Notes under the pieces: model-generated
Database searches by the model: none
What the model was told of the DNA's origin: nothing
The model's input: only the letters and a program-made list of their open reading frames with translations
Translations under genes and position numbers: made by a program
Part shown: in pieces, positions 50 to 41,579 of the stretch
Layout of the letters: each line of letters begins with the position of its first letter
Position numbering within the stretch: the first letter of the stretch is position 1
Virus genome (UHGV): UHGV-0129366
DNA from: a virus
Direction: 5' to 3' (one strand)
DNA length: 44,625 bases

Positions 50-2782
50 TCAGGTTTTTCTTATTAACCATGCTTCCAGAGCGGCAACACTGCGTGTAAT
101 TTCTTCGTGTGGAAGGGGGGCAGATAATGGCTGCTGCTCCAGTTGTGCGCATTGCTGGCTGGCGCTACGCATTCCCAGACTCGAGCAACTGCTTTTTAGC
201 TGATGTGCGGCACGCTTTATTTTCTCGTTATCCTGACTGGCGCGGGCAATGTCGATTTCATCGAGAAGCGGCAGGGCATGTTGTTTAAATAATATCAGCC
301 ATTCGTGGATCTTCTCCGCCCCCATTAAATGAGCATCTTCATTGAGTTGCGATACATCCAGCGGTTGATCATTTTTGACTTGCAGTTGGAGATAGTGCGC
401 CAGTAATTGACCGAGCACTTCACGCGGCACCGGTTTAGGGATAATCCCGCGAAATAGCGAACTGGTACGCTGGCGCAGTGTTTCGTCGATGACATGAGCG
501 CTAAAGCCAATCAAAACCAGCGACGGATATTGCTGTGCCAGTTGCCGGGCAAGCGTAATGCCGTCGATATCCGGCAGATCAAAATCCACCAGTGCGACAG
601 CAAATGGTTCACTATTTTGCAGTGTCTCTAAAGCCTGCGCGGCATTTCCTACGGCAACGACCTGCGCCCCACTGCTGTTCAACATCTCAACGGTAATCCG
701 CTGGGTTAGCGGGTTATCTTCAATTAACAGCAAACGTAAACCGTCCAGACGCACCGCCTGATTGACTGTTTTTGGCACGGGTGCAGTGGCAATACGTAAC
801 GGCAAGCGTAAACAAAAACAGCTTCCAACCTCCGGCGTGCTGGTGGCGCTCAGTTCGCCACCCATCGCCTGGGCCAGACGGCTACTGATAGTCAGCCCCA
901 GCCCGGTGCCGCCGCGTTTGCCGCTAACCTGAACAAATGGCTGGAAGATTTCAGCCAGTTTCGCGGGATCAATACCGCAGCCGCTGTCTTCCACTTCGAC
1001 CAGCCATTGTTCGCCATCAGTGCGACTACGCAGAATAATGTGCCCTTCGTCGGTGAAACGCAGGGCGTTGCTCAACAGGTTGGTAATGACCTGACGAATA
1101 CGCCGCGGATCGCCCATTAACGCAGTCGGTACATCGTCGGCAATTTCTGTTGCCAGGCGAATCGGGCGACCTTTCACCCTTCCGCTCATTAATTGCAGGG
1201 TACTTTCCAGCAGCGGGCGCGGTTCAAAGGGTTCATCGCTGACCGAAACATTCTTGCCGCCTGCTTCGATAGCCGAATAATCGAGAATATCGTTGAGGAT
1301 GGTCAGCAACGATTCACCAGAGTCGGTAATCGCCCGCAAATCATCGCGCTGGGCGTTAAGTGCGGGGTTATCTGCCAGCAGTTGCGCGGTGCCGAGAATA
1401 CCGTACAGCGGTGTGCGGATCTCATGGCTCATCGCCGCCAGAAACGCCGATTTTGCCTGGCTGGCTTTTTCTGCTTCCGCCCGTGCCTGTCGGTGTTCTA
1501 TCACCAGTTCCTGCAATTCAGCTGTACGCGCTTTGACCTGCGCCGCCAGCTGTTCGCGGTGGCGATTCAGTGCATGAACACTGCTGCGAAACGCATCCAT
1601 CAGCCGCCCGATGGTATCCAGTTCCCGTACGCCAGCGGTTTCCGGGAAAGGGGAGTCGATATCACCATCCAGCAAGCGTTGCAGCGCCTGCGTTTGTTCT
1701 GCAAGAGGGCGCGTGACTGAGCGATAAACCACGCGCCAGAGGATCAGAATCAGTGCGCAAAGAGAAACTAATCCCAGCAATAACAGGCTGTATTGCCCGC
1801 GTGCACTGGCTTTTTCCAGATGTGCCAGCCCGTGCTGATTACGCAGCTCAATGGTGTCGACCAGCTGACTGACTTCGCTACTAAACTGCGCGAATTGGGC
1901 GATGTTATTTTGGGCGAGAGTTTGCAGGTGATTGCTGATTTCACTGTCCTGCTGATACAGCGCCAGCAAATCGCTATATTGGCTAACGGTAGTTAACGTT
2001 GTTGCTACCTGAGTACGAACACCCGGATCTTCAATGCGTATTTGCCGACGTTGCAGAATTTTCACCGCATTATTGAGCTGCTTTTCCAGCGTTGGCGCAT
2101 TTTTCTGGATCTGTTCCAGCCCCAGATTCATCACCATTTGCTGCACCCGCAGGGCGCTAAGGCGCAGTTCATTCATCTGGTTAACATACTCAAGATCGAT
2201 ATCAATCAGCCGATCGAGTGCACTTTCTGCGGCCTGACGCTGATGTTGTTCGATCAAATCGTAAATCCCGGCCTGGGTCGCTCCGGCGGAGGTTGCCGCA
2301 TTATTCGCCTGACCTTGCGCCAGGCGTGCGATTTCATCGGCGGCGGCGACTATCTGCTGACTGAGTTGCTGTTGTTGCTGGCGAAGTTGCAAACGCTGCC
2401 CCACCAGTTCCCCTTGCTGACGTAACGAACGGGAGATCTCCTGCTCCTGTTGTTCAATAGCGGTGGTGTCAAAACCTTGTTCCCGTAACGCTTGCAGCAA
2501 CGCATTAATCTTCAGGCTTTGTGCGGTGAGCATTCGCCCCTGCGCCTGCCACATCTTTTCGTTATCGGCACTGGTCAGGTTCTGCGCGGCGAAAAGTTCC
2601 CAGGCGCTGGCTTCGCTCAACTGGCGCGCCATATTCATGGTAGGAATCAATGCCTGAGTGTTGTCTTTTTCCACCTGGCTGATAAAGCGCAGGTTGTACC
2701 ATCCCACCAGGGTACTGGTCAGGGTTAACAGCGCCATCAGGGCAAAGCCCATCCAGAGTCTTCGGGTCAGGGTTAAATTCAC
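50..2782 (-). CDS. torS: TMAO-responsive hybrid sensor histidine kinase TorS
   Basis: 910-aa ORF beginning [21 protein letters not shown]; HisKA H-box (SHEIRTPL), HATPase motifs (GTGLGLTIS), receiver domain (LLLIEDNP) and C-terminal HPt; recalled as E. coli TorS. Confidence 0.93.
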
Positions 2783-2876
2783 GGTCGGTGCACTTTAGGT
2801 GAATAAGTTGTATATTTAAAATCTCTTTGACTATCAATGAATTAATATAAGCAGGTCATTATTAGTCAAAATAAAA
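2783..2876. other. attL: Candidate attL (core plus P-prime arm) between torS start and int 3' end
   Basis: AT-rich 94-bp junction; segment agtcaaaataaaatcatttgtcgatttcaattttgtccc resembles the lambda P-prime arm next to int; flanking core-side sequence differs from lambda. Confidence 0.45.
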
Positions 2877-3950
2877 TCATTTGTCGATTTCAATTTTGTC
2901 CCATTCCCGTCCACGGCTATCCCTATACCGCGCAGCCATTGAATCTGATTTATGCCCGAGAAGACGTTGAGCAAACTTATCGCCAATCTGGTTCCGGTAT
3001 AGCCTTGCTGACAGGCTACGCAGTTCATGGAATGTTGGCGGGTTTCCATCAAATGAGAGTCCAGATGCATTTCTCGCCTTTGTAAAATACTTTGATACTG
3101 TTTTCGGGGAAAGCGGATCGTGATGCTTTGATGCGATTATAGTTTCACTGCTGCTGGCCTCCCTGCATTTCTGTAGTGTATCAGCCAATGAGATATTGAG
3201 CGCGTCAATCGTTAGCATTAGCGGAATGGCGAGTTTAGCCCCTGTTTTACTCTGTTCAATGTGAAGATGGTTGTCGTTTATGTCTGACCATTTCATTCTG
3301 CATAAATCGCCCACTCTCTGCCCTGTAACGACAGCCAAATCCATCGCCAGCCTTAGCCAGATAGGGAGAGGTTCGGCTGCATGGTAAATCTCGACATACT
3401 CATTAGCTGTCAGCCTTGAGCGCCTTACTTCTGACTTTGCTGTACGGGTTGCTGTTACCGGATTCGTTGCCACATGCCCCTCGGCTATTGCTTCACGAAA
3501 AACGTCAACAAGGGTTGACCTGATTAATTTTGCGGAAGCTGCTTTACCTTCTGCTACGTAGGTGTTTAGCATTGCTGCCACATCTTTCGTTGATATGTCA
3601 GTGAGCGGTTTGTCCGGCAATTTTCTTCGGATTGCCCTGATTTTGCTGGCGTAGTCGAGTAGAGTTTTCGGCCTGATCCCCCTTTCGGTGAGGATTCTTT
3701 CATATCGGTCAAGCCACACATGAAGAGTGATTGCGTCACCGCCTTTAATTCTGTCTATCAGTGATTTGCGTCCGCTGTCTGAGAGTAACTCAATATTGGC
3801 CTGTATTGCTTCAGTGATTGCTATCCTCCTGTCTCGGCCTAATCCAAACTCTTTACCCGTCCTTGGGTCCCTGTAGCAGTAATATCCATTGTTTCTTATA
3901 TAAAGGTTAGGGGGTAAATCCCGGCGCTCATGACTTCGCCTTCTTCCCAT
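2877..3950 (-). CDS. int: Tyrosine integrase, lambda/HK022 Int family
   Basis: 357 aa, N-terminus MGRRRSHERRDLPPNLYIRNNGYYCYRDPRTGKEFGLGRDRRIAITEAIQAN and C-terminus near-collinear with lambda Int; catalytic R-K-H-R-H-Y context (HELRSLSARLY, LLGHKSD). Confidence 0.95.
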   Translation of the reverse strand: MGRRRSHERRDLPPNLYIRNNGYYCYRDPRTGKEFGLGRDRRIAITEAIQANIELLSDSGRKSLIDRIKGGDAITLHVWLDRYERILTERGIRPKTLLDYASKIRAIRRKLPDKPLTDISTKDVAAMLNTYVAEGKAASAKLIRSTLVDVFREAIAEGHVATNPVTATRTAKSEVRRSRLTANEYVEIYHAAEPLPIWLRLAMDLAVVTGQRVGDLCRMKWSDINDNHLHIEQSKTGAKLAIPLMLTIDALNISLADTLQKCREASSSETIIASKHHDPLSPKTVSKYFTKARNASGLSFDGNPPTFHELRSLSARLYRNQIGDKFAQRLLGHKSDSMAARYRDSRGREWDKIEIDK

Positions 3951-4146
3951 TTCTGATCCTCTTCAAAAGGCTACCTGTTACTGGTCGATTTAAGTCAACC
4001 TTTACCGCTGATTCGTGGAACAAATACTCTCTTCCATCCTTAACCGGAGGAGGGAATATCCTGCACTCGCGTACCCATCGACGAACTGTTTCAAGGCTTC
4101 TTGGACGTCGCTGGCGTGCGTTCCACTCCTGGAGTGTCAAGTACAT
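3928..4146 (-). CDS. xis: Excisionase Xis
   Basis: 72 aa, MYLTLQEWNARQRRPRSLETVRRWVRECRIFPPPVKDGREYLF..., one substitution from lambda Xis as recalled; overlaps int start as in lambda. Confidence 0.93.
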   Translation of the reverse strand: MYLTLQEWNARQRRPRSLETVRRWVRECRIFPPPVKDGREYLFHESAVKVDLNRPVTGSLLKRIRNGKKAKS

Positions 4147-4173
4147 CGCAAAGTCTCCGCAATTACACGCAAG

Positions 4174-4193
4174 AAAAAACCGCCATCAGGCGG
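4174..4193 (-). terminator. Putative rho-independent terminator upstream of xis
   Basis: Minus-strand hairpin ccgcc/tgat/ggcgg followed by a T-run (plus-strand A-run 4174-4179). Confidence 0.4.
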
Positions 4194-4353
4194 CTTGGTG
4201 TTCTTTCAGTTCTTCAATTCGAATATTGGTTACGTCTGCATGTGCTATCTGCGCCCACAGCATCCAGTGGTCATAGCAGTCATTGATGTTCTCTGCTTCG
4301 ATAACTCTGTTGAATGGTTCTCCATTCCATTCACCTGTGACTCGGAAGTGCAT
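4186..4353 (-). CDS. Small hypothetical protein (55 aa)
   Basis: ORF MHFRVTGEWNGEPFNRV... with GGAG Shine-Dalgarno 8 nt upstream; below the ORF-track cutoff; ends in the terminator hairpin. Confidence 0.3.
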   Translation of the reverse strand: MHFRVTGEWNGEPFNRVIEAENINDCYDHWMLWAQIAHADVTNIRIEELKEHQAA

Positions 4354-4425
4354 TTATCATCTCCATAAAACAAAACTCGCCGTAGCGAGTTCAGATAAAA
4401 GAAATCCCCGCGAGTGCGAGGATTG

Positions 4426-4710
4426 TTATTCATTGCCGATATTCACCTTTATCGCGAATACCTTTACCGGTTTATCGCCGAAGTGCGGATGTGTGATTGT
4501 CTTGATTTCATACCCTTCATACGGGACGTCTATTCTGCGACTGGAGTCGTCGCGCTTCGGATATCCCTTTGTGATAATCAGGCGGTCATATTCCCGGAAC
4601 ATAATTCGCTTATTCCAGTAGTCATTACACAGGCGATACTCTTCCGTTTTCTCTCCGCGAATCATGGCATCGAAGTATTCACCTTTGACGGCAAGTTGAA
4701 GGTTAGCCAC
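4426..4710 (-). CDS. ASCH/DUF3850-like (PUA-fold) protein
   Basis: 94 aa; motif KGEYFDAMIRGEKTEEYRLCNDY...REYDRLII matches the remembered DUF3850/ASCH pattern. Confidence 0.45.
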   Translation of the reverse strand: MANLQLAVKGEYFDAMIRGEKTEEYRLCNDYWNKRIMFREYDRLIITKGYPKRDDSSRRIDVPYEGYEIKTITHPHFGDKPVKVFAIKVNIGNE

Positions 4711-26241: not shown

Positions 26242-28440
26242 ATGGCAGAAAAAAAGATGACTGACTGGCATCGCAAGGTGCTGTGCAACTTTGATAATGC
26301 CTGGTCAGCAACGCAGGATATGCGTGAGCAGATTATTGAGGCTCAACGTTTCGTCCGGGTGTCCGGCGCACAGTGGGAAGGCAGCACAAACGCTGGTTAC
26401 TCATTTGATGAAGGCAGGTTTGAGCATTACCCGCGCTTTGAACTGAATAAGATTGCCCGTGAATGTGATCGCATCATTGGCGAGTATCGACAGAATCGCA
26501 TCAGCGTTAAATTCAGGCCGAAGGATGACAAGGCATCGGAAGCGTTAGCCGAAAAGATGAACGGCAAATTCCGCGCTGATTATCAGGAAACATCCGGTGG
26601 CGAAGCGTGTGATAACGCATTTGATGATGCTGTAACGGGCGGATTCGGTTGTTTCCGCATGTGTGCTGATTACGAAGATGAAATGGATCCGAGTAACGAG
26701 CAGCGACGCATCAGCCTTCTTCCTGTTTACGACCCGGCGACATGCGTCTTCTTCGATCAGGACAGCAAGCAATATGACCGCTCTGATGCTATGTGGGCTA
26801 TGGAAATGTTCTCCATGACGCCTAAAGCGTTCGAGGCTGAATACCCTGATTCCATCGCGGCAAGCCTTTCTCGTGATGACACTGGTACTCAGTATGACTG
26901 GTCAACGCCTGACGCCATCTATGTTGGACGCTACTACGAAGTCCGCATAGAGAAGGTGAAGCTCACAGCATGGCGTAACCCTGTCAGCGGAGAAACGGCA
27001 ATCTATGATGAAGAGCAAATCAAAGATATTGTCGACGAGCTGACCGATGGTGCATTCGAACTGATTGGCGAGCGAACGGTGAAGAAACGCCGAGTTTATT
27101 GCGGTCTTCTGTCTGGCGCTGAATGGCTGGAAGAACCGAAGCGTATTCCGGGCGAACATATTCCTCTCATCCCGGTATATGGGCGTCGTTCATTTGTTGA
27201 TAATCAGGAGCGAATCGAAGGCCACGCAGCAAAAGCGATGGATGCACAGCGTCTTGAGAACCTGATGGTTTCCATGATTGCAGATAACGCCACTCAGGCT
27301 GGCGGTGATGGCATTCCTATCGTGGATGTTGATTTCATTCCCGGCCCATTAATGAACCACTGGGCAGAGAGGAATAAGAAAAGACCTGCAGTTCTTCCTA
27401 TGACCAGCAAGAAGGACAAAAACGGAACGGTCATTTCAGAGGCTCAGGTTGCTGGCTGGACACCTCCGACACAAATGCCTCCAGCTCTTGCAGGGCTATT
27501 GCAGTACACCGGAACGGCTATTCAGCAAATTACAGGTGCGTCGCAGCTTGAGAACATGCCGAGCAACGTCGCTACCGATACCGTTGATAGCATCTTTAAC
27601 CGGATGGACACGCAGTCCTATATCTACATGGACAACATGGCTAAATCCATGCGCCGTGCTGGCGTCGTGTGGCTTTCTATGGCTCGTGAAGTCTATGGCA
27701 GCGATACGCCAATGCGCATCGTTAATGAGGATGACAGCGATGACGTGGCGCTGATGACTGGTGAAGTGGTTGACCGTCAGACAGGGCAGGTTATCGCGCT
27801 TAACGACCTTTCGCAGGGTAACTATGAAGTGACTGTCGATGTCGGTCAGTCGTTCGCTACTCGCCGTGATGCAACGGTTAAGTCGTTACTTTCCATGCTG
27901 GCACTTATCCCGCCAGGAACGCCGAAGCATGACCTTGTATCGTCGATGATTCTCGACAATATGGACGGCGAAGGGATGGACGACCTGAAAGAATACAACC
28001 GCAATCAGTTGCTTCTGTCTGGCGTTATCAAGCCGAGAACGCCTGAAGAACAGCAAATGGTTGAGCAGGCGAAACAACAACAGGCCAGTCAGCCAGATCC
28101 GGCTATGGTTGCAGCGCAAGGTCAGCTTCTGGCTGGTCAGGCTGAATTGCAGAAAGCGCAGAACGAACAGGCAGCCATTCAGGTTAAAGCATTCCAGGCA
28201 CAGACTGATGCTCAGGTTGCAGCGGCAAATGTTGTGAAAATCCTCGCATCTGCCGATAGCCAGCAGAAATCTGATATCCGCGAGGCTCTGAAACTGCTCG
28301 GACAGTTCCAGCAACAGCAAGGAGACAATGCCCGTGCTGATGCAGAGCTTGTCCTGAAAAGTCAGGCACAGGGCCATGCGCAGCGCATGGACATCAGCAG
28401 CATCCTGCAAAAATCAACTCAGCAACAACCACAGCAGTAA
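26242..28440 (+). CDS. Portal protein (P22 gp1-like)
   Basis: 732 aa; C-terminal Gln-rich barrel PETPEEQQMVEQAKQQQ...ADAELVLKSQAQGHAQRMDI parallels P22 gp1. Confidence 0.92.
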   Translation: MAEKKMTDWHRKVLCNFDNAWSATQDMREQIIEAQRFVRVSGAQWEGSTNAGYSFDEGRFEHYPRFELNKIARECDRIIGEYRQNRISVKFRPKDDKASEALAEKMNGKFRADYQETSGGEACDNAFDDAVTGGFGCFRMCADYEDEMDPSNEQRRISLLPVYDPATCVFFDQDSKQYDRSDAMWAMEMFSMTPKAFEAEYPDSIAASLSRDDTGTQYDWSTPDAIYVGRYYEVRIEKVKLTAWRNPVSGETAIYDEEQIKDIVDELTDGAFELIGERTVKKRRVYCGLLSGAEWLEEPKRIPGEHIPLIPVYGRRSFVDNQERIEGHAAKAMDAQRLENLMVSMIADNATQAGGDGIPIVDVDFIPGPLMNHWAERNKKRPAVLPMTSKKDKNGTVISEAQVAGWTPPTQMPPALAGLLQYTGTAIQQITGASQLENMPSNVATDTVDSIFNRMDTQSYIYMDNMAKSMRRAGVVWLSMAREVYGSDTPMRIVNEDDSDDVALMTGEVVDRQTGQVIALNDLSQGNYEVTVDVGQSFATRRDATVKSLLSMLALIPPGTPKHDLVSSMILDNMDGEGMDDLKEYNRNQLLLSGVIKPRTPEEQQMVEQAKQQQASQPDPAMVAAQGQLLAGQAELQKAQNEQAAIQVKAFQAQTDAQVAAANVVKILASADSQQKSDIREALKLLGQFQQQQGDNARADAELVLKSQAQGHAQRMDISSILQKSTQQQPQQ

Positions 28441-28530: not shown

Positions 28531-29427
28531 ATGGACCAGATGGCAGAAAACACACCAGAAGTTGAAATCGAAACCGACGCGTCAGAGCAGATTCCTGATG
28601 ATGTCGAACTGGCTGAAGAAGTCGAAACAGCAGATGGCAGTGAGTCCTCAGGAAATGATGCAGAGGAAGCTACTGACACTGATGACGACGAATCAGAACA
28701 GGAATTCTACTTTGGTGACGAAAAGCTGGATTCGCCAACCAGCGAAGATGGCGCAGAGCATGGACTGGTAAAACACCTGCGCAAGACGATTAAAGAGAAA
28801 GACCGTGAGCTGAAAGAGCTGATGCGTCAGTCTCAGAAACCCGTCGAGCAGCAGCCGGTAATCACTCAACCACCGCGAATGCCAAAACTGGATGATGAGG
28901 ACATCGGTTTCGATGAAGAAATCTATCAGCAACGCATGGCTAAGTGGGCAGAGGATAACGGCAAATACCAGGAGCAAGTACGAGAGCGGAAACGAGAGGA
29001 AGAGGCGCGTACCGCAACGCTTCAGCAGAAAGCAGCCAATTACATGCATAGAGTAAAAGCACTGAAAGTGGCTGGTTACCAGGATGCAGAGCAGGCTGTA
29101 CGCGAAGATGTTCCTGTTCACATTCAGGACATGATCCTTCTTGAGTCAGAGAAGCCGGAAATCGTTGTTCTGGCACTCGGTCGCAACGCTGAACTGCGCA
29201 AGCAACTGGCAGAAGCTACCAACCCCGTAGCAATTGGTCGTCTGCTGGAACGTATCGAATCGAAGGCCAGAATCATGCCAAAAGCAAAAACCACGGCAGC
29301 CACAACCCCGACAGTTAAGGGGAGCAACGGCGCAGTAATCAATAACCTCGACAAACTTCTCGAAAAAGCGCGCGACACCGGTGATTACACCGAATACCGG
29401 GCGGCGAAGAACAAAGCTAAAAAATAA
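28531..29427 (+). CDS. Scaffolding protein (P22 gp8-like)
   Basis: 298 aa, highly acidic N-terminus, helical/charged, between portal and coat. Confidence 0.8.
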   Translation: MDQMAENTPEVEIETDASEQIPDDVELAEEVETADGSESSGNDAEEATDTDDDESEQEFYFGDEKLDSPTSEDGAEHGLVKHLRKTIKEKDRELKELMRQSQKPVEQQPVITQPPRMPKLDDEDIGFDEEIYQQRMAKWAEDNGKYQEQVRERKREEEARTATLQQKAANYMHRVKALKVAGYQDAEQAVREDVPVHIQDMILLESEKPEIVVLALGRNAELRKQLAEATNPVAIGRLLERIESKARIMPKAKTTAATTPTVKGSNGAVINNLDKLLEKARDTGDYTEYRAAKNKAKK

Positions 29428-29447: not shown

Positions 29448-30707
29448 ATGTCTAACCAGTTAACAAAAGACCTCGAAATCCTCTTTGAGAGCGTCATTGA
29501 TAGTTTTGAGGCGTCCAATGTCGTTTCCCGCGAGTGCAGCAAGTTCCGACCGGGCGACATTGAAATGCAGCGCGCTGGCGACGTTGTTTATCGCCCTCAG
29601 GGCTACCACCTGAAAACCGTGAGCGGACTTGATCTGACTTCGGCCACTGCAAACTCACTCGTTCAGCGTCAGGTGCCTGCTCGCTTCCGCGAGCCAGAGA
29701 ACGTCATCTACGAACTGGACGCAAAAGAAATGCGCGATCCGTGGCACAAAGAGCAGGCTGGCAAGGCGGCGGGTCGCCAGTTGGCGGCGTGGGTTGATAA
29801 CATGATCGTCGATGAGGTGGTCGCTCGCTCCACCAACGTGGTCACCATTAAATCGGCGTCCACCGGTAGCACTCTCGGCGAAGAACTCTGGAACGCATCG
29901 GCTGACGTTGATGCAATGATGCTGTCCATTGGTGTGCCTCAGGGTGGTCAGCGCAAGGCGTTCTACAACCCGTTCAACTACAAAGACCTGGCTAAGGAGC
30001 TTGGCTCTCGCGCATATGCGGTCGGTGCAACTCTGACAGCCTATGAGAAAGCTCAGATTCCACCTGTGGCATCCTTCGACAGTTTCCGCGTTGATTATGC
30101 TGGCGCAATGAAGGCTGGTTCAGCTACCGCTGTAACTCTCGGCGGCGCAGTAAAACACAAAGTTACCGCGATGGATTCCAACGGCGCGCCTACCGATAAC
30201 CGCCAGGGTGACATCACCGTATCCACTGCTGGCGTACTGGCTGTCGGCGATGCATTCACTATCGCAGGCGTTAACAGTGTCCACATGATCAAGAAGGTGG
30301 ATACAGGTAAGCCGCAGGTATTCCGCGTCCTGGCAGTAAATGGCACTACCGTTACCATCAGCCCGAAAATTCTGCCACCAGACAACGCGGATAAGGCGTC
30401 TATTCCTTACCAGAACGTTACCGCCAATCCGGTGGCAAACGCGGCGATCACCATCCTCAACAAGAAGGCTGCGGCTTCCAACATCTTCTTCGCTGAGGGT
30501 TCTGTTGAGCTGATGTATGGCAAGTTGGCATTCCCTACCGGCCAGGGTCCGCAGGTTATGACCGCAAGGACCGAGCAGGGTGCGACCATCATCATGGCTT
30601 ACCAGTTCGACGCTAAATCTGGCAAAACGTGGACTCGCTTCACCACGCTGGCTGGCGCAAGCGTACTGGTCCCGGAATTCACCGGCCTGGTACTGGCTAA
30701 CCAGTAA
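29448..30707 (+). CDS. Major coat protein (P22 gp5-like)
   Basis: 419 aa after the scaffold gene; followed by a strong terminator. Confidence 0.85.
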   Translation: MSNQLTKDLEILFESVIDSFEASNVVSRECSKFRPGDIEMQRAGDVVYRPQGYHLKTVSGLDLTSATANSLVQRQVPARFREPENVIYELDAKEMRDPWHKEQAGKAAGRQLAAWVDNMIVDEVVARSTNVVTIKSASTGSTLGEELWNASADVDAMMLSIGVPQGGQRKAFYNPFNYKDLAKELGSRAYAVGATLTAYEKAQIPPVASFDSFRVDYAGAMKAGSATAVTLGGAVKHKVTAMDSNGAPTDNRQGDITVSTAGVLAVGDAFTIAGVNSVHMIKKVDTGKPQVFRVLAVNGTTVTISPKILPPDNADKASIPYQNVTANPVANAAITILNKKAAASNIFFAEGSVELMYGKLAFPTGQGPQVMTARTEQGATIIMAYQFDAKSGKTWTRFTTLAGASVLVPEFTGLVLANQ

Positions 30708-37945: not shown

Positions 37946-38335
37946 TTAACATTTTCTTTTTACTTTTCCAACAAAAGCTTTGGTTGAATCCATATTCCCA
38001 TAACCAGAAATGGTTTTCGACATTAAAACTGTTCCATTAGGATGTATTACCCATGAGTCGATAACTCGTTGAGTTTCGCCATTCGCGCCGATTCCAATGA
38101 TGGAGTTTTTAGACAATGCTTTGTAAGCCATGCCGCCCGCATCTGTCCCAGAATATGTGATGCTGGCATCTTCACTGCTTGTCTTAATGATGAATGTTCC
38201 ACTAAAACCATCTTCTTCCGGATGGAAATTATTTCGTTCTGAATAGCTTATTCCGCGCATATCTCCAACGACCCAGCACTCTGCTGTAGCCCCAAAAGAT
38301 ATGAATAAGAACATAGCAGCAAGAAATTGCTTCAC
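37946..38335 (-). CDS. Secreted (signal-peptide) hypothetical protein
   Basis: GTG start 5 nt after AAGGAGG; predicted signal peptide MKQFLAAMFLFISFGATA then mature protein; in the sieA-equivalent variable slot. Confidence 0.5.
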   Translation of the reverse strand: MKQFLAAMFLFISFGATAECWVVGDMRGISYSERNNFHPEEDGFSGTFIIKTSSEDASITYSGTDAGGMAYKALSKNSIIGIGANGETQRVIDSWVIHPNGTVLMSKTISGYGNMDSTKAFVGKVKRKC

Positions 38336-38365
38336 ACCAACCTCCTTAGTTTTGAGCAGGATACC

Positions 38366-38731
38366 ATGAAAAAAGTTAACATTGGAAACGTACCAAAGAT
38401 GCTCGTTCCGCTCTTTGAGAGCGGTACAATTGTGTTTTGTAGAGACTTTCCAGAATGGCAACGCCTGCATCAAAAACTTGGCGTTGACGTGCATGACTCG
38501 GACGCCAACGGAGCGTCTCATACAATGAGCAGCGAGAATGGTGTTTTGCATGTGATAGGCGTGTTCAATGGCAAACTATCTACTATTGCCCATGAGTGCG
38601 CTCACATGGCATTCGATATCTGCTCAAGGGTCGGTGTTGATGTTGAACCAGGAAGAGCCAATGAGACTTACTGCTACTTAATGAGCAGGCTTGTTGAGTT
38701 CTGCGAGCGACATATCAAAAAGCCGGAGTGA
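38366..38731 (+). CDS. Small HExxH-motif protein (putative zinc metallopeptidase-like)
   Basis: 121 aa from ATG 38366; HECAH motif; divergent from the secreted-protein gene. Confidence 0.4.
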   Translation: MKKVNIGNVPKMLVPLFESGTIVFCRDFPEWQRLHQKLGVDVHDSDANGASHTMSSENGVLHVIGVFNGKLSTIAHECAHMAFDICSRVGVDVEPGRANETYCYLMSRLVEFCERHIKKPE

Positions 38732-38744
38732 CCCGGCTTGAGTA

Positions 38745-38924
38745 TTACTTTTTGCTGTCTGGAGTTCGCTTATCCAATACCCAGCCATGACCTGGCTTTG
38801 TTGTTGGTGGAAGCCTTTCGTTGTCCTTGACGGTTGCAAAATTGTCTTTCTTACCGCCGCGTGGGCCAACTTCTTGGTATATTCCGCCGTTTTTTCCTGT
38901 GTTTTCACCTGGTTTTTTCGCCAT
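38745..38924 (-). CDS. Small Gly/Lys-rich hypothetical protein (59 aa)
   Basis: MAKKPGENTGKNGGIYQEVGPRGG... with GAGG SD; start moved to internal ATG 38924. Confidence 0.4.
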   Translation of the reverse strand: MAKKPGENTGKNGGIYQEVGPRGGKKDNFATVKDNERLPPTTKPGHGWVLDKRTPDSKK

Positions 38925-39016
38925 GATATACCTCAACATATACCCGTTATTGGGCGATTAAATATTGATCTCATTTTATAAGTAGTCAATATGGCCCAGG
39001 TAAATGCAAAAATTAA

Positions 39017-39039
39017 CCCACCGTCAGGTGGGTTTTTTT
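39017..39039 (+). terminator. Rho-independent terminator (possibly bidirectional)
   Basis: cccacc-gtca-ggtggg followed by TTTTTTT. Confidence 0.55.
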
Positions 39040-39071
39040 ATCTTCTCTACTTTAAAGATTAAGGAAATACC

Positions 39072-39257
39072 ATGACCATAGAAGAACGTCTGAACAACAT
39101 TGAGTTGAATCAAACCCTGCTTGACCAGCGACTTTCAGATCTTGAGCTTAAAGATCTAGATGTGCAAATATCAGAAGCAGAAGCCAAGCTCTCCAGCTTA
39201 AACCACCGCAGGAAGCAAATCCGCGACAGAATTACTCGTGGACGCGGAGGCTGTTAA
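39072..39257 (+). CDS. Small coiled-coil hypothetical protein (61 aa)
   Basis: AAGGAA SD; heptad-like sequence; begins just after the terminator. Confidence 0.4.
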   Translation: MTIEERLNNIELNQTLLDQRLSDLELKDLDVQISEAEAKLSSLNHRRKQIRDRITRGRGGC

Positions 39258-39334: not shown

Positions 39335-39871
39335 TCAAACAACCCACCAGTTTGCCTGATTGGATACCAGCCTTGCAGTTTTTATGGAATTAATTATGCC
39401 ATGCTCAAGAGCCTTGTTAGCATCCAAAATGGTCGAGTCTGCTATCAGGGATGCCCACCTAATATGGGTTCCGATGTCGATATTGAACGTCTCAACGAAG
39501 CGATCAAGATCGTTATCGAGGCATTTCCCGTACTCTCTCAATCTGGCATGGTCGGCGGCTGGGGAGGCAAAGCACCATAATAGAGGATGTAACAGGAATC
39601 TTGATAATGGGTTTGCGAAACGTTCTGAGCCAGCCAGGAAAACGATATTAGCTATGGATTCAACATTGCTTATGTTGTGAGTTCTAACGGTAACAGGGAG
39701 TGACTTAAGAAAGTTATACGCAGTAAAGCCAGCGGCAGTTTCCCCTCCCTGACTTGATATATGGATATTTAATTCAGTTGCGCCTTGAGATAATGCGGTG
39801 AGACAGTGGTTCTGAAGTTGCCCAACAGTGGCAGTGTTAACGGGGCATAAGAAATGAATTGTGTGCAGCAT
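39335..39871 (-). CDS. ClpP/crotonase-fold serine protease-like protein, translationally coupled to mnt
   Basis: 178 aa; HISSQGGETAAGFTAYNFL parallels the ClpP YINSPGG...AG block; Ser (VESIAN), His (LLHPLL) and Asp candidates in ClpP order; start ATG overlaps the mnt stop. Confidence 0.5.
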   Translation of the reverse strand: MLHTIHFLCPVNTATVGQLQNHCLTALSQGATELNIHISSQGGETAAGFTAYNFLKSLPVTVRTHNISNVESIANIVFLAGSERFANPLSRFLLHPLLWCFASPAADHARLREYGKCLDNDLDRFVETFNIDIGTHIRWASLIADSTILDANKALEHGIINSIKTARLVSNQANWWVV

Positions 39872-40125
39872 TATTTATCATCCTTGCCATAAATCTTTTT
39901 AAGTGTCTCAAACACAACGGCCTTGAACTGCTCTGCTTGCTGATCAGCCAAGCGTTCAGCTTCGTCTCGATAGCCTGCAATCGGTGATGGCTTTGAGAGA
40001 GCATCCTGAACGATTTGTAATAACTCAGAGTTCATTGACCTTCCGTTAGCCTCTGCTCTTAATTTCAATTTTTCTCTTACTTCCAAAGGCATACGGAAGT
40101 TAAAGTGCGGATCGTTTCTAGCCAT
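39871..40125 (-). CDS. mnt: Mnt repressor (ribbon-helix-helix)
   Basis: 84 aa MARNDPHFNFRMPLEVREKLKLRAEANGRSMNSELLQIVQDALS... closely resembles P22 Mnt. Confidence 0.9.
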   Translation of the reverse strand: MARNDPHFNFRMPLEVREKLKLRAEANGRSMNSELLQIVQDALSKPSPIAGYRDEAERLADQQAEQFKAVVFETLKKIYGKDDK

Positions 40126-40147: not shown

Positions 40148-40200
40148 TTGACATGATAGAAGCACTCTACTATATTCTCAATAGGTCCACAGTGGACCTA
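40148..40200. promoter_or_regulatory. immI control region: Pant with Oarc and Omnt operators
   Basis: -35 ttgaca 40148-40153, -10 tatatt 40171-40176; Oarc atgatagaagcactctactat 40153-40173; Omnt palindrome taggtccacagtggaccta 40182-40200. Confidence 0.8.
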
Positions 40201-40215
40201 TATTGTGAGGTAAAT

Positions 40216-40374
40216 ATGAAAGGAATGAGCAAAATGCCGCAGTTCAATTTGCGGTGGCCTAAAGAAGTATTGGATTTGGTGCGTAAGGTGGCGGAAGAGA
40301 ACGGGCGATCTGTTAACTCTGAGATTTACAAGCGAGTGTTGGACAGCCTGAAGAGAGAGGGGATAACGGTATGA
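40216..40374 (+). CDS. arc: Arc repressor
   Basis: MKGMSKMPQFNLRWPKEVLDLVRKVAEENGRSVNSEIYKRVLDSLKREG matches P22 Arc; GTGAGG SD. Confidence 0.92.
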   Translation: MKGMSKMPQFNLRWPKEVLDLVRKVAEENGRSVNSEIYKRVLDSLKREGITV

Positions 40375-40592
40375 GGTTTATTGAGGTTGATGAGATTGGC
40401 TATGAGAATGCACTTGGTAGAGGTAAATCTTTAGTTAACATTGATGGCATTGAATCGATAAGGAGTGGTGAATTTACGGAGATCAGAATGATGTCAGGCG
40501 GAATCATTCCTTGCCGTGATTCAGTAGAGTCAATCAAATCAAAAATGAGTGGTCAGTGGCTTTATAGCTACAGTGACTTACAAAAACAGTGA
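40371..40592 (+). CDS. Hypothetical 73-aa protein inserted between arc and ant
   Basis: ATGA-coupled to the arc stop; no family recognised. Confidence 0.45.
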   Translation: MRFIEVDEIGYENALGRGKSLVNIDGIESIRSGEFTEIRMMSGGIIPCRDSVESIKSKMSGQWLYSYSDLQKQ

Positions 40593-40655
40593 AGCCCCAA
40601 CTGCGGGAACAGTCAGGGCTTCGGTATCGTAAAACCACGCATAGGAATTAACGAC

Positions 40656-41579
40656 ATGACGAGTGTAGCAATTGCAGAACATACAATCAACGTTCCATTC
40701 CACGGAACAAATCTCTTTTTGGTCAGCATTAACAATGAACCTTACGTTCCTATGAAACCCGTTGTAGAAGGCATGGGTATGGTTTGGGCTGCTCAATTTG
40801 TTAAATTAAAACAGAGATTTGTCAAAGGTATTTCGGAAATCGAAATACCTTCTGCTGGCGGTAAACAGTTAATGATATGCCTTGCCTTTCGTAAGTTTGC
40901 GGCTTGGCTTTCAAGCATTCAGCCAAACAAAGTCCGCCCTGAAATCCGCGACAAGGTAATCCAGTATCAGGAAGAGTGTGACGATGTGCTCTACGAGTAC
41001 TGGACTAAAGGTCATGTAGTTAACCCACGCAAAGCTAAAAAGGCGTTGCCGAGTAAAATTACCACTGAACAGCAGGAAGCCATTAAACAACTCGTCATGA
41101 GTCGCGGTCAGTCTCTGCCAAAAGAAAAACAGGCGAAGGCAATGATTACCATGTGGTCGTCACTGAAATCTCATTTTGGGTGTTCATACAAAGAAATCAG
41201 CGAGGAGCAGTTTACCGAAGCTCTGTCACTTGCAGCTCGCGTTCCGCTTGAAGGTGAGTTTATCGGCAAACAAGAGAAGAAAACCAACGAGCTTTCTGCA
41301 AAAGAAGCAAACAGCCTTGTATGGTTATGGGATTATGCCAACCGTTCACAGGCATTATTCCGCGAACTGTATCCGGCGCTAAAACAAATTCAATCGAACT
41401 ATTCCGGCAGATGCTACGACTACGGTCATGAGTTCTCGTATGTTATCGGAATGGCGAGAGACGTTTTAATCAATCACACACGAGATGTTGATATTAATGA
41501 GCCAGACGGACCAACGAATCTTTCCGCATGGATGAGACTTAAGAATAAAGAATTACCTCCTTCAGTACATAACTACTGA
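40656..41579 (+). CDS. ant: Antirepressor-like protein
   Basis: 307 aa downstream of arc in the Pant operon; not similar to P22 Ant as recalled; C-terminal 100 aa shared with the Roi-like protein at 17869-18546. Confidence 0.6.

Follow-up and report, generated by a model that had tools for sequence, protein, structure and literature searches.

The stretch analyzed here is UHGV virus genome UHGV-0129366, 44,625 nucleotides (nt) of DNA that we refer to as the window; it holds a P22-like prophage with a flank of host DNA, the host being Escherichia coli. A complete P22-type immunity-I (immI) region lies between gene 16 and the tailspike gene, and directly downstream of its maintenance repressor gene mnt is a 178-aa open reading frame (ORF), ORF178, which encodes a short ClpP-like protein (Table 1). 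The ATG of ORF178 and the TAA of mnt overlap by one base, position 39871 (TAATG), as the original prediction, made from the letters of the sequence, had described. A Shine-Dalgarno sequence, AAGGA, is located at 39885-39881 within the final mnt codons, 9 nt ahead of the ORF178 ATG. A terminator scan from the mnt promoter Pmnt to the end of ORF178 detected no terminator-like site, and the first one on the minus strand was the hairpin at 39015-39034. We concluded that mnt and ORF178 make up one operon, with ORF178 distal, and that a conserved Shine-Dalgarno-TAATG junction connects them.

Survey of other immI regions for the same coupling indicated that the junction recurs. The sequence AAGGAT(G/A)A(T/A)AAATAATGCT is common to five Mnt alleles with a mutual identity of only 40-78%, whose sources are P22-like prophages of E. 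coli, the lambda-like PhiR12 phages and a prophage of Pectobacterium; the coupling is therefore a conserved feature and not an accident of one genome. All five coupled Mnt alleles have the C-terminus YGKDxK, whereas P22 Mnt, which has no ClpP-like gene downstream, has a different C-terminal end. The conserved block starts 22 nt beyond the ORF178 stop (39313) and extends 40-90 nt into mnt, so that the homology block covers 39313-39909/39958 at 95-98% identity, and its flanks are diverged. In Escherichia phage PhiR12_5, a lambda-like siphophage, the genes ant, an Arc-like ORF, mnt and the ClpP-like gene (locus 2525-4537) are inserted between tail genes K and L, with the ClpP-like gene outermost in the block and 57 nt from gene L. 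The set of four thus co-occurs also outside P22-like phages.

To assign ORF178 to a family, we compared it with sequence profiles and solved structures. Pfam CLP_protease (PF00574) matched at 44.4 bits (cut-off 20.2), with ORF178 residues 24-165 aligned on profile positions 37-180 of 182. A profile built from 39 relatives of ORF178 was searched against solved structures and gave 9uxt_A as the best match at E 1.8e-48, whereas canonical ClpPs were found at ∼1e-10 or weaker. The Pfam score and the profile E-value put the ClpP-like match far above chance. The AlphaFold2 (AF2) model of ORF178 had a mean predicted local distance difference test (pLDDT) score of 90.7. Foldseek aligned it to 9uxt_A with template modeling (TM) scores of 0.91/0.89, a root mean square deviation of 1.9 Å and 38% identity over 180 columns (40% in the sequence alignment of the two proteins), and to the canonical ClpPs of E. 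coli, S. aureus and M. tuberculosis with TM scores of 0.76-0.80 and 20-23% identity. In the fold search of BFVD, no viral predicted structure was closer than canonical ClpP; the viral structures there match the AF2 model at TM 0.74-0.85. The NCBIfam ClpP equivalogs gave weak matches below threshold. Comparison of ORF178 with its 79%-identical Pectobacterium orthologue gave a ratio of nonsynonymous to synonymous substitution rates (dN/dS) of 0.08, which indicates purifying selection. At E ≤ 1, CLP_protease and one chance match were all that the Pfam scan found; neither SDH_sah nor S49 (SppA-like) was among them, and we rejected membership in the SDH and S49 families on the lack of a Pfam match. 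Of the families proposed for comparison at the outset, ClpP was therefore positive and SDH and S49 were negative, and the ClpP fold first suggested for this protein agrees with the model.

9UXT is the structure of PpClpP1 from Pseudomonas plecoglossicida (PLoS Pathog 2026; PMC12900304), and from its sequence and modeled fold ORF178 is a clear homologue of this protein. The original prediction missed this solved and characterized relative, which suggests co-assembly with host ClpP over a free-standing protease. PpClpP1 is a homotetradecamer by cryogenic electron microscopy and analytical ultracentrifugation, lacks the N-terminal axial region and has a 42.7 Å pore (PMC12900304). In its "Ser-His-Pro" site the Ser and His are essential and the third residue is dispensable, and its peptidase activity is 13-fold weaker than that of the canonical paralogue (PMC12900304). 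It does not bind ClpX; with canonical ClpP it forms a heterotetradecamer, and this complex has the higher activity whether or not ClpX is present (PMC12900304). In addition to the matches given above, ORF178 shares with PpClpP1 a similar length (178 vs. 183 aa), the N-terminal truncation, the Ser and His, a non-acidic third position and the absence of a ClpX-docking N-terminus. It differs in having Ser146 at the third position instead of Pro151, and in being prophage-borne and mnt-coupled, whereas the Pseudomonas members stand alone among ordinary chromosomal genes. The oligomeric state, activity and heterocomplex are known for PpClpP1, while ORF178 is known from its sequence and predicted fold.

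The catalytic residues were first proposed to follow the ClpP order of a Ser, a His and a later Asp, and this assignment holds in part. The motif SSQGGETAAGFTAYNFL corresponds to ORF178 residues 39-55. Ser72 and His95 are invariant in the 39 relatives, and across the wider short-ClpP family 137 of 139 representatives keep them. The column equivalent to Asp171 of canonical ClpP aligns with Ser146 and is occupied by G, A, R, P, S or Q in the 139 representatives; it is never acidic, and therefore the "later Asp" is not equivalent to the catalytic Asp. Asp145, which adjoins Ser146, is not conserved across the family. The label of serine protease is thus favored by Ser72 and His95, both of which the homologue needs (PMC12900304), but a full Ser-His-Asp triad is not present: the comparison found a ClpP fold, yet no acidic third residue at the aligned triad position. 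Two acidic residues of the handle helix, Glu113 (117/139) and Asp121 (104/139), are conserved in the short-ClpP family; E. coli ClpP does not share them. Either of these may be an alternative acidic partner for His95.

Met1 of ORF178 aligns to residue 24 of mature E. coli ClpP, and the first ∼23 residues (axial loops and gate) are absent. Within the residue list that we take to define the docking pocket, 8 of 10 alignable positions are polar or small in ORF178, and L23 falls in the missing N-terminus. The changes relative to E. coli ClpP include Y60N, Y62H, F82S, I90H, L114N and L189K. As judged from the alignment, ORF178 lacks both elements for docking ClpX/ClpA, the axial loops of the N-terminus and the hydrophobic pocket, and it probably cannot dock an ATPase alone. 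The RefSeq label of the gene, "ATP-dependent Clp protease proteolytic subunit," looks misleading for a protein without the unfoldase-docking N-terminus and pocket.

These features could also be read as those of a dominant-negative ClpP "poison," a weak ring that caps host ClpP, lowers ClpXP/ClpAP activity and stabilizes phage or host proteins. The missing acidic third residue and the non-conserved docking pocket would suit such a protein, as would the low intrinsic activity of the homologue PpClpP1 (PMC12900304). However, the heterocomplex of PpClpP1 with ClpP2 is more active, not less, alone and with ClpX (PMC12900304), and the Ser and His are strongly conserved although a pure scaffold would not need them. 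We consider a poison highly improbable. Atypical second ClpPs (P. aeruginosa ClpP2, Listeria ClpP1 and Mycobacterium ClpP1P2) provide another comparison, as they work only or mainly with a canonical ring. The concept that an accessory ClpP ring tunes ClpXP output by pairing with the canonical ring has been outlined before (PMC13056064). P. aeruginosa ClpP2 (7m1l) matched ORF178 structurally at E 6e-12 and TM 0.76, but the identity of ORF178 to the atypical second ClpPs is only 19-23%, which places it outside those clades. Furthermore, they are core host chromosomal genes, whereas ORF178 is supplied by a prophage to E. coli, which normally has one ClpP, and the short-ClpP family of ORF178, unlike them, has no acidic third catalytic residue.

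A role in head maturation would be the conventional assignment for a phage-borne ClpP-like gene, and it is the GenBank annotation in phage phiv205-1 (MN340231.1, 10718-11254). The best PHROG match of ORF178 is PHROG_94, "head maturation protease," at E 7e-21, and the S14 prohead proteases resemble ORF178 in being phage-borne and N-terminally short with a ClpP fold. The NCBIfam model for such proteins, Clp_rel_HeadMat (NF045542), however, gave 49.3 bits against a cut-off of 120. ORF178 is ∼9 kb from the head operon and on the minus strand, and it is neither fused nor adjacent to a scaffold or capsid gene. The portal, scaffold and coat genes are contiguous on the plus strand without a protease slot. 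Homologues also occur in non-phage chromosomal contexts. P22-type capsids mature without proteolysis, and the resident phage type needs no prohead protease. We rejected the prohead protease reading on position, strand, the NCBIfam cut-off and the contiguous portal-scaffold-coat block, and give it almost no credence; the phiv205-1 label looks misleading. The non-morphogenetic role favored in the original prediction is consistent with the intact head block and with ORF178 being on the strand opposite to the late operon.

We examined the distribution of the gene in E. coli and beyond. ORF178 was carried by 128 of 5,426 complete E. coli genomes (∼2.4%), 127 of them at ≥99% nucleotide identity, and the carriers include the E. 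coli type strain, APEC O1 and uropathogenic E. coli (UPEC) isolates. Among the E. coli matches listed, an Arc-family gene adjoins every intact copy. The gene is also present in six phage records. The profile search of the whole library found 63 clusters at E ≤ 1e-30, a number that rose to 2,169 at E ≤ 1e-10. Prophage relatives with 52-74% identity stand on their own outside any immI region, and in seven other prophage contexts homologues stand alone and antisense to their neighbors. The homologue lies between the lysis cassette and terminase in Klebsiella, other Enterobacterales, Leclercia and Serratia; adjoins an N-like antiterminator gene in Proteus; is found between tail-fiber and lysis genes in Chromobacterium and within a Mu-like tail module in Pantoea dispersa; and is beside terminase gpA in a betaproteobacterial metagenome-assembled genome. 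In Pseudomonas, Telluria and Methylotenera the homologues are chromosomal with ordinary neighbors. At the high-GC Massilia loci naive ORF calling is unreliable, so only selected neighbors were scanned there. We rejected the idea that PpClpP1 itself is prophage-borne, since the Pseudomonas loci show ordinary chromosomal neighbors.

In a rough neighbor-joining tree, two mnt-coupled proteins formed a terminal twig within the clade of stand-alone prophage genes, with the Pseudomonas clade as sister. This placement indicates that mnt coupling is a late capture of a mobile cargo gene. On these sequence comparisons the coupling is a derived feature of the E. coli/Pectobacterium sub-branch. We also considered a type II toxin-antitoxin pair, in which a ribbon-helix-helix antitoxin gene overlaps its toxin gene; it was rejected because most homologues stand alone without an upstream ribbon-helix-helix gene and because E. 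coli could be made to over-produce PpClpP1 with no partner present (PMC12900304).

The same data bear on a regulatory protease specific to immI, which would be co-made with Mnt and destroy leaky Ant (or Arc), thereby locking lysogeny. Such a tie could be seen in the junction kept with five different Mnt alleles, in the PhiR12 phages, which keep ant, the Arc-like gene, mnt and the ORF178 gene together between tail genes, and in immI variants that encode a ClpX-type zinc-finger ORF between arc and ant. But outside the sub-branch the closest relatives (74 and 72% identity) are flanked by lysis and terminase genes and have neither mnt nor arc nor ant in their vicinity, and the tree makes mnt coupling derived and terminal. 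P22 and most prophages matching this mnt allele function without the gene. Furthermore, ORF178 has no evident substrate-recognition domain, and unfoldase docking appears not to be possible from its sequence. We regard an immI-specific protease as very unlikely; the effect on Ant/Arc stability entertained earlier is disfavored by the 52-74% identical relatives that stand alone away from immI and are chromosomal in Pseudomonas.

The slot between gene 16 and mnt has variable contents: P22 has sieA there, and relatives have a Panacea-domain gene. ORF178 is absent from P22 and most of its relatives, and its mosaic boundaries are sharp. These slot contents fit a role as exclusion or fitness cargo, and ORF178 would be a moron (cargo gene) with predicted transcription from Pmnt. 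The original prediction took P22 Mnt to stand alone beside sieA. The P22 record does not bear this out: there orf59a separates mnt from its terminator, and sieA, which adjoins orf59a, has its own promoter. Like ORF178, orf59a and sieA occupy the slot downstream of mnt; in P22 they are lysogen-expressed genes. They differ from it in that orf59a is ∼99 nt from mnt, whereas ORF178 overlaps mnt, and in having no sequence relationship to ORF178. The sieA product is a membrane exclusion protein.

Such a slot raises the possibility of a free-standing exclusion or defense protease, an open-pore tetradecamer that degrades unfolded or injected proteins of superinfecting phages (ejection or scaffold proteins) without host ClpP. 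Its occupants in P22 and relatives would agree with this, as would homologues in classical moron/defense slots antisense to late genes, and PpClpP1 alone has measurable peptidase activity and the 42.7 Å pore (PMC12900304). On the other hand, PpClpP1 alone is 13-fold weaker than canonical ClpP (PMC12900304), no conserved partner or sensor gene is found nearby, and the Pseudomonas, Telluria and Methylotenera members are ordinary chromosomal genes. A search of PADLOC-DB 2.0 at E ≤ 0.1 gave no match for ORF178 or Mnt, and four neighboring ORFs gave none except one weak chance-level match of the 61-aa ORF; a known anti-phage defense system was thus rejected. Because the homologue is intrinsically weak and the family has chromosomal members, a free-standing protease is less likely, and we consider it unlikely overall.

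The expression predicted for ORF178 follows from the immI control region. The window Mnt is 76% identical to P22 Mnt, and in an alignment of the two regions the window Pmnt coincides with the annotated Pmnt of P22. Within the control region, 4 of 108 columns differ from the P22 record, none of them within Oarc, and the annotated Mnt operator has two substitutions relative to P22, one at the palindrome center. The sar antisense RNA ends just upstream of the ant start codon (40656), and its presence there makes the immI region fully P22-like apart from the cargo. In P22, Mnt bound at Omnt shuts Pant and favors Pmnt, and Arc shuts both promoters. By analogy, ORF178 driven by Pmnt would be made together with Mnt in established lysogens while Pant is held shut, and Arc made early in infection would turn ORF178 down. 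A preprint on E. coli LF82 describes a 50-fold induction of the mnt operon of prophage Gally in macrophages. The Gally prophage has mnt alone with no ClpP-like gene, and this induction is therefore no expression evidence for ORF178.

With the biochemistry of PpClpP1 as a guide, ORF178 would assemble into heptameric rings with a wide ungated pore that do not recruit an unfoldase alone. An ORF178 ring could stack on a host ClpP ring; the resulting mixed tetradecamers would bind ClpX/ClpA via the host ring and may have an altered, probably raised, proteolytic output of ClpXP/ClpAP. We favor the reading that ORF178 is a prophage-borne short ClpP, a lysogen-expressed cargo protein that retunes host Clp proteolysis, and neither a head protease nor an integral part of immI, at a probability of roughly 0.6. 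Candidate benefits are the exclusion of superinfecting phages with Clp substrates among their proteins and a change in host stress or virulence regulation. Several points weigh against this interpretation. Its expression in the lysogen is predicted from P22 immI genetics, and the case for co-assembly with E. coli ClpP is carried over from a protein of another genus with 38-40% identity. The third triad position is Ser146 in ORF178 and Pro in the reference PpClpP1, and the IGF/ADEP pocket residues compared are those that we presume to dock ClpX/ClpA. PADLOC gave no defense-system match for ORF178. Finally, the five coupled Mnt alleles and the ant/Arc-like/mnt/ORF178 block of the PhiR12 phages could mean a closer tie to immI than that of a cargo gene.

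Some P22-like immI regions carry a second Clp-related gene, a 60-aa ORF that lies between arc and ant in the Pant operon and has a ClpX C4 zinc finger (Pfam zf-C4_ClpX, 40.9 bits, cut-off 27; Table 1). It was found in 10 of 5,426 E. coli genomes, some of which have the ClpP-like gene and some of which lack it. Linkage of the two genes was rejected, as they assort independently: one genome has both and one has the zinc finger only. In the same arc-ant slot a Pectobacterium locus (L009, 4277-4504) has a 75-aa CxxC...CxxC ORF with no Pfam match. It is curious that two Clp-related accessory genes occur within one small regulatory region. A bolder scheme, which we judge decidedly unlikely, is that the prophage provides E. 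coli with a second, gate-less ClpP ring that caps the host ring, and that ClpXP/ClpAP substrate turnover is thereby reprogrammed only in dormancy because the gene is wired to the Mnt arm of the switch, with phage-resistance or host-fitness phenotypes as the outcome. In some immI variants a ClpX zinc-finger decoy of the Pant arm would then push host Clp proteolysis in a different direction.

The remaining features of the window are collected in Table 1. Host DNA at the left end encodes a 910-aa sensor-kinase-like ORF followed by the phage integrase gene. This junction resembles the tor-locus insertion site given for prophage Gally in the LF82 preprint, the kinase gene being putative. The interval from gene 16 to ORF178 (37946-39257), which is the sieA slot in P22, contains only unassigned ORFs. 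One of these, the 61-aa ORF, sits between ORF178 and the terminator, so that the Pmnt transcript would run antisense through it. The 73-aa ORF between arc and ant is unrelated to the ClpX zinc-finger ORF.

Table 1. Positions of ORF178, its catalytic codons, the immI elements and other genes in the window, with the zinc-finger ORFs of other loci in the last three lines.
Feature	Position	Strand	Basis or remark
ORF178, short N-terminally truncated ClpP paralogue of PpClpP1 type, 178 aa	39335..39871	-	Pfam CLP_protease, profile, AF2
Coupling junction GGCAAGGATGATAAATAATG	39869..39888	-	Read directly from the sequence
Ser72 codon, predicted nucleophile (VESIA)	39656..39658	-	Aligns with E. coli ClpP Ser97 and PpClpP1 Ser73
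His95 codon, predicted general base (LLHPL)	39587..39589	-	Aligns with E. coli ClpP His122 and PpClpP1 His96
Ser146 codon, site of canonical ClpP Asp171 (Pro151 in PpClpP1)	39434..39436	-	Alignment; non-acidic
mnt, maintenance repressor of immI, 84 aa	39871..40125	-	Pfam Arc 94.5 bits, Repressor_Mnt 46.1 bits
Pmnt promoter, TTGAGA-17-TATCAT, predicted source of the mnt-ORF178 transcript	40153..40181	-	Promoter scan
Pant promoter, TTGACA-17-TATATT, divergent, overlaps Pmnt	40148..40176	+	Promoter scan, alignment to P22
Arc operator, identical to P22 Oarc	40153..40173	.	Alignment to annotated P22 region
Mnt operator, AGGTCCACAGTGGACCT core	40177..40199	.	Alignment to annotated P22 region
arc, other arm of the immI switch	40216..40374	+	Pfam Arc 92.2 bits; start set by P22 alignment
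73-aa ORF between arc and ant	40371-40592 (slot)		
sar antisense RNA	40588..40654	-	Rfam RF00262, 76.6 bits, gathering score 43
ant, antirepressor	40656..41579	+	Pfam P22_AR_N 136.8 bits, P22_AR_C 103.6 bits
Tailspike gene	41680 (start)		
Bidirectional hairpin terminator	39015..39034	.	Terminator scan
61-aa coiled-coil-looking ORF	39072-39257	+	Converges on ORF178
YjzC-like ORF, 64 aa	38745-38939	-	Below Pfam cut-off
134-aa ORF	38327-38731	+	Overlaps the 201-aa ORF
201-aa ORF	37946-38551	-	Overlaps the 134-aa ORF on the other strand
Coat gene	29448-30707	+	
Scaffold gene	28531-29427	+	
Portal gene	26242-28440	+	
Host DNA at left end	50-3950		
Zinc-finger ORF, locus L050	2506-2688	-	
Zinc-finger ORF, E. 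coli APEC20/16 (L053)	3001-3183		
Zinc-finger ORF, E. coli 14EC047 (L052)	3001-3183		

The short-ClpP family is known and was characterized in 2026, and RefSeq already names the gene as a Clp proteolytic subunit. In the literature searched we found nothing on prophage carriage of the family, on mnt coupling or on the family-wide missing acidic third residue, and nothing about the ORF178 gene itself, the papers on phiv205-1 and E212 included. Phage is nowhere mentioned in the PpClpP1 paper (PMC12900304). The PpClpP1 family is re-framed by the present analysis, in that part of it is phage cargo moving between Enterobacterales, which was not considered in the structural paper. Two database labels, "head maturation protease" and "ATP-dependent Clp protease proteolytic subunit," are corrected. 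Many regulators and several phage proteins are under the control of ClpXP, among them lambda O, the repressor and transposase of Mu, sigma-S and SOS proteins. The idea of a prophage lending a second ClpP ring to a host with only one ClpP is testable; if it holds, such a ring would give a dormant virus a compact means of retuning proteolysis in E. coli.

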